24,609 nucleotides of DNA, taken from the IMG/VR virus record IMGVR_UViG_3300017909_001287, positions 1 to 24,609 of that record. One strand, written 5' to 3'. The notes beneath the pieces are model-generated. The model worked only from the letters and a program-made list of their open reading frames with translations. It was not told where the DNA came from and searched no databases. Numbering within the stretch: position 1 is the first letter of the stretch; each line of letters begins with the position of its first letter. The DNA comes from a virus (Duplodnaviria > Caudoviricetes). Below are positions 3,251 to 21,183 of the stretch, piece by piece. Made by a program: the position numbers and the translations under genes.

Positions 3251-3306
3251 TGTGACCACCAGCCTTTCATGTAATCCATCGTCCGGTCTTTCCGTCCGAT
3301 ACATCT

Positions 3307-3332
3307 ATTCTAACATATCGCGTACATACGCG
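3307..3332 (-). promoter_or_regulatory. Extended -10 promoter (TGnTAGAAT) for the leftward operon with adjacent palindrome CGCGTA-n2-TACGCG
   Basis: Minus strand reads TGTTAGAAT at 3315-3307; the palindrome is at 3319-3332; no canonical -35 is visible. Confidence 0.55.
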
Positions 3333-3339
3333 GGTTAGA

Positions 3340-3762
3340 GTTAGCATGTGCCAGCCATCAGACGGACAGTCGGCCTCGGCCTCCCCATCGGGTACGGCGA
3401 CGTGCGCGCGGTGGCGCGCGACGGGCGACGGGCGTGCTGTGGACAATGCAAGCGTTGCACGCGCGGGCGAGGGCCACCCCCCCGCTGACCTGGGGTTTGT
3501 AAAGGTGGCCCCCACCCCCCACACCCCCTGTCCTGAGAAAAATTTTTGCCTATTTCTGGGGCATTCTGGGCATCTTGAAAAAAAAGTTTGGCTTGGGGGG
3601 TTGAAATCACCCCCTTTTCAAGCCCTCTTCTTTTATAGGGATGAAAAAAACGTTGAGGCGCTTCGCGCCGAGACGTTCGTATTTTTTTTTGTGGATAAGT
3701 GGGTGAGGTCTATCCAGCGGCCCCCCTGGATTTTTGCCCCTGTTGTCCCCCTGTGGAGTGTT
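3340..3762. other. Non-coding divergence region, candidate packaging/terminal (pac/cos/DTR) region
   Basis: Lies between divergent operons just upstream of terminase. Contains C7/C5/C6/C5 tracts, A/T tracts and several inverted repeats. Confidence 0.5.
3644..3690. terminator. Bidirectional terminator-like hairpin
   Basis: A7 tract, interrupted stem AACGT..GGCG-cttcg-CGCC..ACGTT, then T9. Confidence 0.35.
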
Positions 3763-5667
3763 ATGTCTGAGGATGCTTCGTCTCGTAGGCGGGTTAGTGC
3801 TGACGAGGCTCGTAAAGAACTGATTGACTTGGTGCGGCAGGGCCGCACTATCTCTGATGGCCTGAAAGTTGTTGGCCGCTCGCGGTCGTGGTACGACGCG
3901 CAGCGGCGTGCGGTTGAGGGTTTTTCTGTGATGGTGGATGGTGTCCGCCTGCGGCAGTCTGATGCTGCCTCGGCGGCCCGTAAATCGGATATTGGTTTCT
4001 CGGAGTTTTCGCAGCGTTACTTGGATACTCGCGTGTGGCCGCACATGCAGAATGTGGTGGACTTGCTGGAGGGTCGGGAGCCTGAGTGGCTGCCTGAGCA
4101 GATGATCTACGAGCCGGGTACTGCTGGCTTGTCTCGGCTGATGGTGAACGTCCCGCCGAATCATGCGAAGTCGATGACGATTACCATCAATTACATCACG
4201 TATCGGATCGCGAAAGACCCGAACATCAATGTCTTGATTGTGTCGAAGACTCAGGAGCAGGCGAAGAAGTTCCTGTACGCGATCAAGCAGCGGTTGACGC
4301 ACCCGAAGTACGCGGACTTGCAGGTGGCTTTCGGCCCGGCGGATGGTTACCGGGCGACTGCCGACCAGTGGGCGGCGAACAGGATCTATTTGGGTGGGGA
4401 TGCCCGGGACTCCGGCGAGAAGGATCCGACCGTTGAGGCTCTCGGGATGGGCGGTCAGATCTATGGTTCGCGTGCGTCGCTGATTGTGTGCGACGACGTG
4501 GTGACCTTGGCTAACGCTGGGGAGTGGCCTAAGCAGATGGACTGGTTGCGCCAGGAGGTAGCCTCGCGGCTCCCACCGGGGGGCGGTCAACTGCTGGTGG
4601 TGGGTACTCGCGTTGCCCCGATTGATCTTTACAAGGAACTGCGGAACCCGGAGCATTACACGGACGGGAATATTCCGTGGACATATCTTGCAATGCCTGC
4701 CGTGCTGGACTACAAACCTGACACGGCTGATTGGGCGACGTTGTGGCCCAAGAGTGAGCAACCTTTGGCGGATAGCGATACGCCGGACGCTGATGGGTTG
4801 TTTGAGAGGTGGAGCGGGCCGCGTCTGAATGCGGTTCGCAACGAGGTTGGGCCAGGTAAATGGTCGCTGGTGTACCAAAACCTCGATGTCGCAGAAGACG
4901 CCATTTTCGACCCGGTATGCGTCAGAGGCGCAGTGAATGGAATGAGGAAGCCGGGGGCACTGGTGTCTGGCGCGACAGGCCACCCCGCCGATTCAGCGAA
5001 TTTTTATCGAGTAATCGGCATTGACCCAGCGATGACTGGAGATACTGCGGCTGTTGCTTACGCCGTGGATCGGAGAACAAACAAGCGGTACGTCATGGAT
5101 GTCTACGTAATGACATCGCCGACCCCTGCCGCTATCCGTGACCTGATCCGAGAGTGGGCGGATGCGTACAAGCCGCATACGGTGATCGTGGAGTCGAACG
5201 CCTTCCAGTTATTCCTGACACAGGACGAGGAAATCAGGACGTTCCTGTCCAGCCGTGGGATTGCCTACCGTCCGCATCACACGAGCACCAATAAAACAGA
5301 CCCCGAGTTTGGTGTCGCATCCTTGGCCCCCCTGTTTGGCACAAAGACCAAGCGAGAAGGCCAGGAGGCCACTAAGCACGCAGGCGACAACCTAATCGAG
5401 TTGCCTGACGCCTCCCGCAGCGAGCACATGAAGAAAATGATCGAGCAGTTGGTCACATGGCAGCCGGGGGTGCGCGGCAAGAAACTAAAAATGGACACAG
5501 TGATGGCGCTGTGGTTCTGCGAGATTGTCGCTCGCGAAGTTCTAGCACAATCCTCGGGGGTTTCGAGGTTCGTAAAGAACGAGTTCGCCACGAAAGCGGA
5601 CATTGAGTCTCGTTACGTCATAAATCTTGATGATCTTGCTGCTTCGCAGCAATTCGCCCGAATCTAG
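3763..5667 (+). CDS. terL: Terminase large subunit with N-terminal HTH
   Basis: Walker A variant VPPNHAKS, Walker B LIVCDD, coupling motif VGTR, RNase H-like IGIDPA, VESNAFQ and C-terminal DTVMALW. Start reassigned to ATG 3763 (GGAG RBS); the upstream part of the 773-aa ORF is tract-rich non-coding DNA. Confidence 0.93.
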   Translation: MSEDASSRRRVSADEARKELIDLVRQGRTISDGLKVVGRSRSWYDAQRRAVEGFSVMVDGVRLRQSDAASAARKSDIGFSEFSQRYLDTRVWPHMQNVVDLLEGREPEWLPEQMIYEPGTAGLSRLMVNVPPNHAKSMTITINYITYRIAKDPNINVLIVSKTQEQAKKFLYAIKQRLTHPKYADLQVAFGPADGYRATADQWAANRIYLGGDARDSGEKDPTVEALGMGGQIYGSRASLIVCDDVVTLANAGEWPKQMDWLRQEVASRLPPGGGQLLVVGTRVAPIDLYKELRNPEHYTDGNIPWTYLAMPAVLDYKPDTADWATLWPKSEQPLADSDTPDADGLFERWSGPRLNAVRNEVGPGKWSLVYQNLDVAEDAIFDPVCVRGAVNGMRKPGALVSGATGHPADSANFYRVIGIDPAMTGDTAAVAYAVDRRTNKRYVMDVYVMTSPTPAAIRDLIREWADAYKPHTVIVESNAFQLFLTQDEEIRTFLSSRGIAYRPHHTSTNKTDPEFGVASLAPLFGTKTKREGQEATKHAGDNLIELPDASRSEHMKKMIEQLVTWQPGVRGKKLKMDTVMALWFCEIVAREVLAQSSGVSRFVKNEFATKADIESRYVINLDDLAASQQFARI

Positions 5668-18075: not shown

Positions 18076-19326
18076 ATGCCTAATCATTATGAGCAGGAAT
18101 TTCGGGACTTGGGCTTCGGCTCCATCATGGATTTCTTGCGTGACCCAACACCGATTGATCTTGAGGGGTCAACAACCGAACCTGGGTTCGTTGATTACGG
18201 TCAGGCACCGAGCGTTACGTTCCCGGCTGGAGGCGGCCCAGGGACTTTTACGCCTGGTGACTATGACCCTCCTCCCGGATTTTTCGAGGCAAACAACATT
18301 GCTCCCCCTGCACCGCCTCGCACGCTGACCTCAACGCAAACCAAGCGCACCTACGGTGGCGTTGTCCAGGTTATTGCGTACTACTCTGACGGCTCACAAG
18401 AAGTCATTGACTCGTACACAGATAGGTCTGCTGGGGAAGAAGCGGCATCCATATTCCGTAACGCCGGACTCGATCCCGCGTTTGTTGATCGTCTGATGGC
18501 AACGATTGACCAAGTGTACGCCACTAACATTGACCCTTCTGAGGGTCAGATCTTGAACGTGATTTACAACTCGGATGCGTACAAGCAGCGGTTCAAGGCA
18601 AACGAGGCTATCCGTCAACGTATTGCTGACGGTCAAGGGCGTCCTGGCGACCGCATGTTGTCGCCAAAAGAGTACATAGACCTGGAGAACACGTACCGAA
18701 CCGCCCTCCAGCAACGCTCGATGCCGGAAGGTTTCTACGACTCGCCGGATGATTTTACAAACCTGATTGCCAACAGCATCAGCGCAGCAGAGTTTTCTTC
18801 ACGTGTGGACACCGCTGCTTCTGCTCTGAATCAGGCAGACCCGTCCGTCGTGAGCAGTCTTCAGAATTTTTACAACTTGACCAAGAGTGATCTGGTTGCT
18901 TATCTGCTCGACCCAACTCGGGCAGAGCCAATCTTGAACGCTCGCGCTTCTCAGAGTCCGTTTGGCTTGAACAGCGCGGACGAGTTGCAGCGGATCTACT
19001 CCACCGCCGAGGTTGGTGGTATGGCTGGACGTCAGGGCCTAGGGGTCGGTCGGGAACTGGCTGAAGAGATTGTTGACTTGGGTAAAGCAGATCGTGCTGA
19101 TGAGGCGTTCCAGATGGCTGGAGCGGTAGAGCCGGATCTGCAAAGACTCGGGTCTCTTTACGGTGAGCCTTTAGATTTCAAGGATCTAGTGAAAGAAACT
19201 TTGAATTTGTCGGGCGGCGTTGAGTCTGGTCGTCGCCGTCGCAAGTTTGCCTCTCGTGAGCGTGCGGCATTCAGTGAGCAATCTGCGCTGGATAGTCGTT
19301 CATTGAGGCGTATGCAGGACGTCTAG
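18076..19326 (+). CDS. Putative internal virion protein
   Basis: 416 aa; Pro-rich N-terminus, helical body and basic C-terminus; directly precedes the scaffold region. Confidence 0.6.
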   Translation: MPNHYEQEFRDLGFGSIMDFLRDPTPIDLEGSTTEPGFVDYGQAPSVTFPAGGGPGTFTPGDYDPPPGFFEANNIAPPAPPRTLTSTQTKRTYGGVVQVIAYYSDGSQEVIDSYTDRSAGEEAASIFRNAGLDPAFVDRLMATIDQVYATNIDPSEGQILNVIYNSDAYKQRFKANEAIRQRIADGQGRPGDRMLSPKEYIDLENTYRTALQQRSMPEGFYDSPDDFTNLIANSISAAEFSSRVDTAASALNQADPSVVSSLQNFYNLTKSDLVAYLLDPTRAEPILNARASQSPFGLNSADELQRIYSTAEVGGMAGRQGLGVGRELAEEIVDLGKADRADEAFQMAGAVEPDLQRLGSLYGEPLDFKDLVKETLNLSGGVESGRRRRKFASRERAAFSEQSALDSRSLRRMQDV

Positions 19327-19333
19327 TTCTGTC

Positions 19334-19410
19334 GGGTGTGACAGGTCAGAGGTGACGAGCAACCAGAGGGTTGCCCACCTAACCCCGGTTCAATTCCGGG
19401 CACATCCACC
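19334..19410 (+). ncRNA. Mini tRNA-like RNA resembling the tmRNA tRNA-like domain only (Ala identity, no anticodon, no tag ORF)
   Basis: Acceptor GGGTGTG/CACATCC with G3-U70; discriminator A then CC; T-arm CCCGG-TTCAATT-CCGGG; stemless D-loop ACAGGTCAG; helix AGGTG/CACCT capped by GCAACC-agag-GGTTGC; 3-nt AAC connector. Confidence 0.8.
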
Positions 19411-19539
19411 CCTAGCCGGATCGGTCGGCCCCGGCGGGCGTACAAGTCCGACAGTCATTCTCAGCCATTCCTGGTGCCCCTTGCCAGGCGTGAGGGAGAG
19501 TGCGACCCGAGATGGGCCATACGAGAAAAGGGAGTTGAA
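19411..19539 (+). promoter_or_regulatory. Structured 5' leader of the scaffold-capsid genes (H-type pseudoknot plus long hairpin with anti-SD loop)
   Basis: Pairings GCCGG/CCGGC, GTCGG/CCGAC, CATTCTC/GAGAGTG and CCTGGTG/TGCCAGG. Apical CCCTT is complementary to AAGGG in the RBS. Confidence 0.6.
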
Positions 19540-19980
19540 ATGGCCGAATACGACGAGTTCGATTACGACGAAGATCAGGGAACTGATCTGGTCAAAGACC
19601 TGCGGAAGCAGGTGAAAGAACTCTCCGCTGCAGTAAAGGAGCGCGACGAGTACCTCAACGAGTTCTTAGCCGTAACCCGCGAGGAGGAGATCGGCGAAGC
19701 GTTGCAAGAAATGGGTGTCAACCCAAGGGTTGCTGCGTTTGTCCCCGATGAAGTCGAGGACATGGATGATCTCGAAGCGTGGATCGGTGAGTACGGGGAG
19801 GTGTTCGGCGTTGAGGCCACGGGCGACGAGGGCAAAGAAAAGCCTGAGTCCGTTCAAGCCGCCGAACTGATGTCAGCCGTAGAGGAAGGCGGCATCGACC
19901 CCACCGTGGGTCAAAGTCTGGAAGCAAAAATCCAGGCTGCCTCGACTCCAGAGGAGTTGCAGGCGATCCTGAAGGGCTGA
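19540..19980 (+). CDS. Capsid scaffolding protein
   Basis: 146 aa, very acidic, N-terminal coiled coil (LVKDLRKQVKEL), C-terminal helix-turn-helix-like AASTPEELQAIL; directly before the capsid gene; AAGGGAG RBS. Confidence 0.8.
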   Translation: MAEYDEFDYDEDQGTDLVKDLRKQVKELSAAVKERDEYLNEFLAVTREEEIGEALQEMGVNPRVAAFVPDEVEDMDDLEAWIGEYGEVFGVEATGDEGKEKPESVQAAELMSAVEEGGIDPTVGQSLEAKIQAASTPEELQAILKG

Positions 19981-20016: not shown

Positions 20017-21183
20017 ATGGCTGACACGTCAACTAGTACGCTGACTAATCTAATTCAGACAGCGTACGACAAGTATGTGCAGTTCAATCTGCGCAGCGAG
20101 CCGATGTTCCGCAAGTTTGCGGACGTCCGCCCGGTTGACGTCACCAACCCCGGTGCCACTGTTGTGTTCCAACTCCACAACGACCTATCTCGGATTACAG
20201 ATCCTCTGACCGAGACTTCGGACGTTAGTGCTGTTGCTCTCAACAACACAAACCGGGTTCAGGTAACCGTCAACGAATACGGTAACGCCGTTACCACAAC
20301 TGAGCGTCTCGCACTTGAGTCGCTCTCTGCAATCGACCCCGCAGTGGCGGATCTGCTCAGTTACAACATGAGGGATTCGTTCGACGCACTGGTCTACAAG
20401 ACCCTCGTTGGTCTTGCGACTGGTCGTTTTGCGGGAACGGTCGCTGACGACGAAACCACCGTGAACGGTGTGGATAAGACCACAGCGTCCACGACCACTC
20501 TGCAGGCTGCGGATGTCCGCAAGGCTGTGGCTAAGTTGCGTGGCGCGAATGTGCAGCCTCGCGACGGTGGTTTCTACATCGGTATGTTGCACCCGGACAC
20601 CTCGTACGACCTTCGCACGGAGGCTGCGACTTCGGGAGCAAACGTCTGGCGTGAGCCGCACACCTACACCGAAGCCGGTGTGGGCAACATCTGGAACGGT
20701 GAGGTTGGTGTCTACGAAGGCGTCAAGTTCATCGAGTCTGCTCGCGTTGAGCAGGCGTCCGATGGCATCACGCGCACCATCAGCAACAAGGCTCTGACGA
20801 GCAACGTTGCGACCCTGACCACCTCTGCCGCTCACGGCTTTGAGGTTGGGGAGACCGTGACCGTCGCTGGTGTGGACGCAACCTTCAACGGTTCGTTCAC
20901 CGTCGCGTCGGTCCCGACGACGACCACGTTCACCTACGCAAAAACTGCGTCGAACGTGTCGTCCACGTCAGCGACAGGTACTGCTACCTCGCTCGATCAC
21001 AAGGTGATCGTCATGGGTAAGCAGGCCCTGCTGGAAGCGGTTTCGTACGAACCGAAGACAGTGATCTCGCCCATCACCGATAAGTTGATGCGCTTCCGCT
21101 CAGTCGGATACAAGGGATTGCTCGGCTGGAACGTTTACCGGCCCGAGGCTCGCTACGTTATCAACTGCACGTCCAGCATCTAG
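20017..21183 (+). CDS. Major capsid protein (HK97 fold, N4-gp56-like) with inserted beta-rich domain
   Basis: Motifs TVNEYGNAV, DVRKAVAKLRGANV, MLHPDTSYDLR, GEVGVYEGVKFIES, GKQALLEA and DKLMRFRSVGYK; follows the scaffold gene. Confidence 0.92.
   Translation: MADTSTSTLTNLIQTAYDKYVQFNLRSEPMFRKFADVRPVDVTNPGATVVFQLHNDLSRITDPLTETSDVSAVALNNTNRVQVTVNEYGNAVTTTERLALESLSAIDPAVADLLSYNMRDSFDALVYKTLVGLATGRFAGTVADDETTVNGVDKTTASTTTLQAADVRKAVAKLRGANVQPRDGGFYIGMLHPDTSYDLRTEAATSGANVWREPHTYTEAGVGNIWNGEVGVYEGVKFIESARVEQASDGITRTISNKALTSNVATLTTSAAHGFEVGETVTVAGVDATFNGSFTVASVPTTTTFTYAKTASNVSSTSATGTATSLDHKVIVMGKQALLEAVSYEPKTVISPITDKLMRFRSVGYKGLLGWNVYRPEARYVINCTSSI

Follow-up and report, generated by a model that had tools for sequence, protein, structure and literature searches.

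Genomic context

The sequence analyzed here (the window) is a 24,609-nt viral record from an aquatic phage that is about 59% complete and includes terminase, portal, head, and tail genes. Between a gene for a 416-aa protein and the probable scaffold gene, itself followed by the major head gene, lies a small tRNA-like element, here referred to as the mini-tmRNA. The features of the region are as follows.

18076 to 19326, plus strand: gene preceding the mini-tmRNA, with a 416-aa product (phrog_8424) and 32% identity to the gene that precedes the tRNA cluster of Manuel
19334 to 19408, plus strand: mini-tmRNA (tRNA-like domain [TLD] only), from G1 to discriminator A73; 75 nt, CCA not encoded
19334 to 19340, plus strand: acceptor stem, 5′ strand, with G19336 as G3; G·U in 17 of 17 aligned sequences
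19341 to 19349, plus strand: stemless D-loop, 9 nt, with a conserved GG and a conserved G 4 to 5 nt further on
19350 to 19380, plus strand: closing helix with a hairpin cap where standard tmRNA has pseudoknots and a tag frame; variable among relatives in both length and sequence
19381 to 19383, plus strand: 3-nt connector; middle A invariant in 17 of 17 aligned sequences
19384 to 19400, plus strand: T-arm, 5 bp with a 7-nt loop; 100% of cells paired in the alignment
19401 to 19408, plus strand: acceptor stem, 3′ strand, with U70 (19405), and A73 (19408)
19415 to 19539, plus strand: conserved structured leader of the scaffold-capsid genes, separate from the mini-tmRNA; strong covariation, no Rfam family
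19540 to 19980, plus strand: acidic protein of 146 aa (phrog_7813), by its position the probable capsid scaffold
20017 to 21183, plus strand: major head protein (phrog_1357)

The nearest named cultured capsids are those of Streptomyces phages (about 42 to 44% identity) and WhiB is encoded in five of five related genomes, on which grounds the host is probably an actinobacterium. In the Streptomyces podophage Manuel, the equivalent slot is filled by 19 tRNA genes; model R2 detected no mini-tmRNA in this cluster or in L067. A promoter scan of the window found no sigma-70-like site, and the accompanying terminator scan gave no more than expected by chance, with two terminator-like sites on the minus strand. 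Elsewhere in the window, an amidoligase and a glutamine amidotransferase gene form a pair on the minus strand (694 to 2704), and the 773-aa terminase large subunit (3346 to 5667) has only partial matches to shorter families, its N-terminal 140 residues being unmatched; an insertion or fusion is possible.

Structure of the mini-tmRNA

The architecture described in the initial annotation, i.e., a 7-bp acceptor with G3-U70 and A73, a stemless D-loop, a connector, a hairpin, and a T-arm, was confirmed base by base. The acceptor strands (19334 to 19340 and 19401 to 19407) form seven of seven pairs, including G19336·U19405 (G3·U70), with A19408 as the discriminator. The D-loop has one base fewer between the GG and the later G than the Rfam tmRNA consensus. 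The 5-bp closing helix (19350 to 19354 with 19376 to 19380) encloses 21 nt, within which 19359 to 19364 and 19369 to 19374 form a 6-bp hairpin with a 4-nt loop. The bases 3′ of the discriminator are C-C-C (ACCC), and CCA would therefore need to be added after trimming.

The minimum free energy of the fold is −32.3 kcal/mol (z-score, −2.75), with 3 of 200 shuffles folding equally well. The combination of paired acceptor, T-arm, G3·U70, and A73 occurs only once in the window, and it was found by chance in 1 of 300 random 24.6-kb sequences generated under the same dinucleotide model. The element scores 75.4 bits with model R2, the training set of which included this sequence.

A tmRNA head rather than a tRNA or a coding sequence

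ARAGORN made no call over the whole window, and an Rfam scan of the whole window (E ≤ 5) missed the mini-tmRNA. When 226 nt were scanned against Rfam, the best match was to tmRNA (RF00023) at positions 19334 to 19411, with an E value of 3.6e-7 and a score of 21.5 bits, which falls short of the gathering score (47); lower-scoring matches of the same clan were left aside. Both ends of the model are matched in the alignment, with 37 nt standing in place of 326 deleted model positions. The RNA is in one piece and holds neither the tag frame nor the pseudoknot ring; with these features absent and the score under 47, it falls outside the full standard RF00023 form. Consistent with the tmRNA affinity, the best BLASTN matches in cultured phages are tmRNA 3′ ends.

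Three other identities were considered and rejected. In a permuted two-piece tmRNA (RF04321) the acceptor 5′ strand would not be expected upstream, where it lies here and forms seven of seven pairs; a downstream RF04321 match (E value, only 0.16) is the Shine-Dalgarno site. A tRNA-Ala would have a D-stem and an anticodon arm with a 7-nt loop, both of which are lacking, and the inner arm varies freely among relatives. Coding on either strand, including an overlapping 87-aa open reading frame (ORF), was dismissed because the lengths of the orthologs differ by non-multiples of three.

Conservation in orthologous capsid-gene slots

Capsid-anchored searches yielded 81 loci in which the slot is complete. 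Among these, a strict finder with no requirement for G·U detected 21 copies (14 distinct), and model R2, applied to 69 slots (the other 12 of the 81 being already positive), added four more (L424, L432, L441, and L444). The mini-tmRNA is present in 25 of the 81 orthologous slots and absent from 56, two of which contain remnants, a distribution that is patchy even among close relatives and identifies the element as accessory. All 25 protein-anchored copies keep G3·U70 and A73, with nothing imposed.

In an alignment of 17 sequences (13 protein-anchored, including the window and L009, and 3 from the pattern scan; L427 is partly misaligned), 92.9% of cells were paired and 37 cells had changed on both sides. 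None of 500 shuffles reached the covariation score of this alignment, a control that is inflated by kinship. The inner arm, in turn, changes freely in length and sequence. The compensatory changes disfavor the decaying ordinary tRNA that the initial annotation had allowed for and, together with the RF00023 match, bear out its claim of a tmRNA tRNA-like domain without a message. The mini-tmRNA is a TLD-only (coding sequence [CDS]-less) tmRNA of the type found in mycobacteriophage DS6A, real and under selection.

Inspection by eye of the two slots with remnants revealed a bare minihelix with G3·U70 in L375 (about 3301 to 3342) and a tRNA-like remnant with A3-U70 and no G·U in L430 (about 3287 to 3335). 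D-loop or T-loop features have been lost in L375 and L424. The T-loop variant of L424 (2435 to 2517), the L375 minihelix, and the L430 remnant form a reduction series in one slot. Another tRNA is present in 16 of 70 longer loci, and tRNAs occupy the slot in Manuel and L400. In L400 (2994 to 3074; contig of L013), an odd tRNA-Ile-like gene and a repeated sequence separate the mini-tmRNA from the leader.

A wider viral family with a strong G3·U70 preference

A loose pattern with few fixed bases and U70 matched about 1,600 IMG/VR stretches, as estimated from 5 of 64 parts of the collection. In 109 of 120 sampled stretches (101 distinct), every one of the free positions, four in the acceptor and four in the T-stem, was paired, from which we estimate that about 1,450 IMG/VR stretches carry the tag-less form, counted as stretches and neither as genomes nor as independent events. 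Each free acceptor pair formed in 104 to 106 of 112 distinct unfiltered sequences, compared to shuffle maxima of 65 to 88, and a closing helix of at least 5 bp was found in 81 of the 101 distinct members versus 26% in shuffles. CCA is encoded in 27 of the 101. ARAGORN misses 97 of them and overlaps the other four with some call, L376 being a member that it calls a tRNA.

The C70 version of the pattern matched 63 stretches in the whole IMG/VR collection; 22 were fully paired, 15 of these were tRNAs according to ARAGORN, and 7 remained. The ratio of G3·U70 to G3-C70 is about 200:1, counted in scans that fixed G3 and so placed A3-U70 and other 3-70 replacements outside the counts. Three of the seven remaining C70 stretches (L195, L199, and L235, which are syntenic) are one sequence of the window phage's own lineage. 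As this G3-C70 lineage and the remnants illustrate, the G3·U70 constraint can lapse. With L054, which has G3·U70, the three contigs represent both forms in a single lineage and so offer a naturally occurring control on whether charging is needed.

Complete, unannotated copies lie among the tRNA genes of the cultured Streptomyces phages LuckySocke, BRock, and Shaeky, the last of which encodes both a tRNA-Ala and a mini-tmRNA. No phage SmpB was found in 49 carrier records, nor in the 16 near-complete ones. About 7,300 stretches in bacterial genomes match the pattern; none of 120 sampled was a clean mini-tmRNA, most, including both fully paired ones, being tRNA-Tyr-like, with L343 as a 6/7 candidate. 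The bacterial scan is swamped by tRNA-like matches and says little about prophages.

Several other arrangements were observed among the carriers. L033 and L446 (LuckySocke), two different phage records, share a near-identical, structured-looking stretch directly 3′ of the mini-tmRNA that could be another small RNA or a 3′-processing element. In another phage group (L034, L043, L056, L060, and L061), a conserved leader of a different kind lies between the mini-tmRNA and an unrelated gene. In L041 (about 1492 to 1700), a tmRNA-like 3′ end is closely followed by a second tmRNA-like 5′ start, which suggests tandem or permuted genes.

The downstream pseudoknot leader

The leader contains an H-type pseudoknot (19416 to 19419 with 19431 to 19434, and 19424 to 19428 with 19448 to 19452), a long stem with a C-rich loop (19454 to 19501), and a Shine-Dalgarno-like GGGAG (19530 to 19534). 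It was recognized in 53 of the 81 slots with a strict regular expression and by eye also in printed slots without a mini-tmRNA; it was seen in L372 to L444, L010, and L011, with or without the element. Across 21 sequences, 91.3% of cells were paired and 16 of 21 pairs changed on both sides, compared to 23 to 42% in slid controls; the alignment used for this assessment had also served to derive the structure, and these figures lean toward pairing. The leader had no match in Rfam. It is possibly an undescribed cis-regulatory RNA that likely regulates or protects the scaffold-capsid mRNA; pairing between the C-rich loop and the Shine-Dalgarno site is conceivable.

The initial annotation had also proposed that the small RNA reroutes trans-translation. 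We found no support for this in the region, the inner arm pairing with its own leader no better than with the leaders of relatives: among 11 cognate pairs there was no consistent advantage over noncognate ones.

Part of the region is contained in 20 listed sequencing runs, 14 of them on record as RNA, and eight were compared, all as contigs. Contigs start at 19415 in X1 and X11 (one sample), at 19419 in X2 and X3, at 19433 in X4, and at 19557 in X14; X5 spans the mini-tmRNA, and X15 (type unknown) breaks at 19412 to 19417. These starts weakly hint at an mRNA end just 3′ of the mini-tmRNA, from two campaigns at most. The small RNA itself was not isolated in any of the eight contig-only runs. 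At position 19452, four of four runs (one run set) have T for C, with the pseudoknot pair kept as G·U.

Tag-less rescue as a possible function

Our preferred interpretation, which we hold at about even odds, is that the phage TLD, charged with alanine, joins host SmpB in stalled ribosomes, where it contributes alanine and no tag. The mini-tmRNA would likely be cut out of the late transcript, after which host enzymes would add CCA and charge it with alanine. As no phage SmpB was found in the carrier records, that of the host would be used: the charged RNA, with host SmpB and EF-Tu, would probably enter the stalled ribosome in competition with host tmRNA and there accept the nascent chain, i.e., perform the first half of trans-translation, adding its alanine but having no degradation tag to give. 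The likely benefit to the phage would be less tagging and proteolysis of its proteins; ribosomes might be either freed or blocked.

Published work (cited by PMC accession, from the portions available) provides elements of such a pathway. AlaRS has G3·U70 as its determinant, and the contacts of SmpB are with the D-loop and A334 (PMC8363625); in vitro, a TLD fragment with SmpB accepts peptidyl transfer (PMC3895274) and supports template-free polyalanine synthesis (PMC3929946).

In a rival explanation, the RNA binds host SmpB and lowers trans-translation with no ribosome entry, the alanine serving only to stabilize it or to add EF-Tu binding. According to the available text of PMC4131195, tmRNA is inhibited by a similar molecule, chargeable or not, perhaps through titration of SmpB, and that of PMC11915505 reports that the DS6A form inhibits tmRNA in Escherichia coli; both cite Mao et al. 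2009 and disagree on the molecule tested. The lack of a phage SmpB and the persistence of the G3-C70 lineage in three contigs fit passive binding. However, inhibition without alanylation leaves the roughly 200-fold preference for U70 in excess of need, and in vitro a charged TLD, together with SmpB, can take part in peptidyl transfer (PMC3895274, PMC3929946). We therefore favor the alanine-charged RNA as the simplest reading, at a middling level of confidence, and consider a passive SmpB sponge rather unlikely.

Also improbable, in our estimation, is that the tRNA-like fold serves to direct host tRNA-processing nucleases to the late transcript, whose cleavage would yield a scaffold-capsid mRNA with its start at the pseudoknot leader. 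The RNA contigs that begin at 19415 to 19419 in four of the eight runs are a weak hint in this direction, and degenerate remnants (L375 and L430) or tRNAs (Manuel and L400) retained in the slot would fit. Such a signal does not need G3·U70, however; the leader is present without the mini-tmRNA in most relatives, copies in other phages lie within tRNA clusters far from capsid genes, and among the contigs X5 runs across the junction, X4 and X14 begin at later positions, and X15, of unknown type, is likewise broken there. Processing of the transcript at the mini-tmRNA may be a by-product.

We attach a similarly small likelihood to a decoy that absorbs anti-phage enzymes attacking tRNA or tmRNA, or to a nuclease-proof stand-in that sustains rescue after cleavage of the host tmRNA message, a conjectural link to defense. 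Occupation of tRNA slots (another tRNA lies in 16 of the 70 longer loci) and the patchy presence, as in a host-specific conflict, agree with these possibilities, but the RNA has no anticodon loop to bait anticodon nucleases, and in a pure decoy the SmpB-type features would be superfluous.

Finally, a functionless decaying tRNA-Ala or integration-site remnant, to which the occasional ARAGORN tRNA call and the 3′-only BLASTN matches might point (phage attachment sites carry tmRNA 3′ ends), can be set aside given that both ends are present and covary, that the closing helix is retained well above shuffles, and that tRNA-Ala and mini-tmRNA coexist in Shaeky.

To return to tag-less rescue, a bolder generalization, which we put forward tentatively and regard as doubtful at present, is that phages widely encode such a system of their own: an alanine-charged mini-tmRNA would borrow SmpB, eject the damaged mRNA, and take the place of host tagging while infection lasts, leaving untemplated alanines on stalled chains. 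If true, phages would commonly carry RNA genes of a class that annotation overlooks and that acts on the quality control of translation. The strength of G3·U70 selection is a constraint that the published sponge model did not predict, and the LuckySocke, BRock, and Shaeky copies make sponge and active tag-less rescue testable against each other in laboratory strains.

Comparison with known systems

This kind of element is already known, hardly studied, and much more frequent than the published lists would indicate. The tmRNA collection curated in 2025 (PMC11915505), with viruses drawn from RefSeq, has 97,179 sequences, including 79 phage tmRNAs and 9 standard CDS-less ones; against those 9, we estimate about 1,450 stretches, which turns a class published for one phage into a widespread one. 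A literature search, with subscription journals mostly outside its coverage, found no paper on a broad phage mini-tmRNA family. Six contig identifiers were absent from the six supplements searched of an IMG/VR structured-RNA survey (PMC10690425), which may contain the motifs.

Compared to the standard one-piece tmRNA (RF00023), the window RNA matches both ends and is without the pseudoknots and tag frame. A full two-piece tmRNA is on record in a phage (PMC9004378). The CDS-less mitochondrial and plastid tmRNAs, as presented in the available text of PMC11915505, are likewise tag-less TLDs, thought to partner SmpB on incomplete mRNAs; they are, however, the organelle's own, and the mitochondrial ones are usually permuted, whereas the window RNA is a phage gene beside a host system assumed to be intact, in a host placed only as a probable actinobacterium. 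Alanine tailing by RqcH/RqcP has an end product that the mini-tmRNA might also leave, namely stalled chains with untemplated alanines at the C terminus, but in the accounts available it is protein driven and acts on split 50S subunits with ordinary tRNA-Ala, making it an analogy only.

The closest counterpart is that of DS6A, classed as "TLD only" in Table 2 of PMC4131195, and the mycobacteriophage precedent mentioned in the initial annotation proved real. We located it at positions 28478 to 28560 of JN698994.1 (36.4 bits, model R2). The two RNAs share the G3·U70 acceptor, A73, stemless D-loop, 3-nt connector, and T-arm, a short hairpin-capped closing helix, no tag frame, and a CCA that is not encoded. 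The window RNA differs in its shorter D-loop, in an unrelated inner arm, and in its setting, ahead of the scaffold and capsid genes in a podovirus-like phage with a probably actinobacterial host, and with the pseudoknot leader after it.
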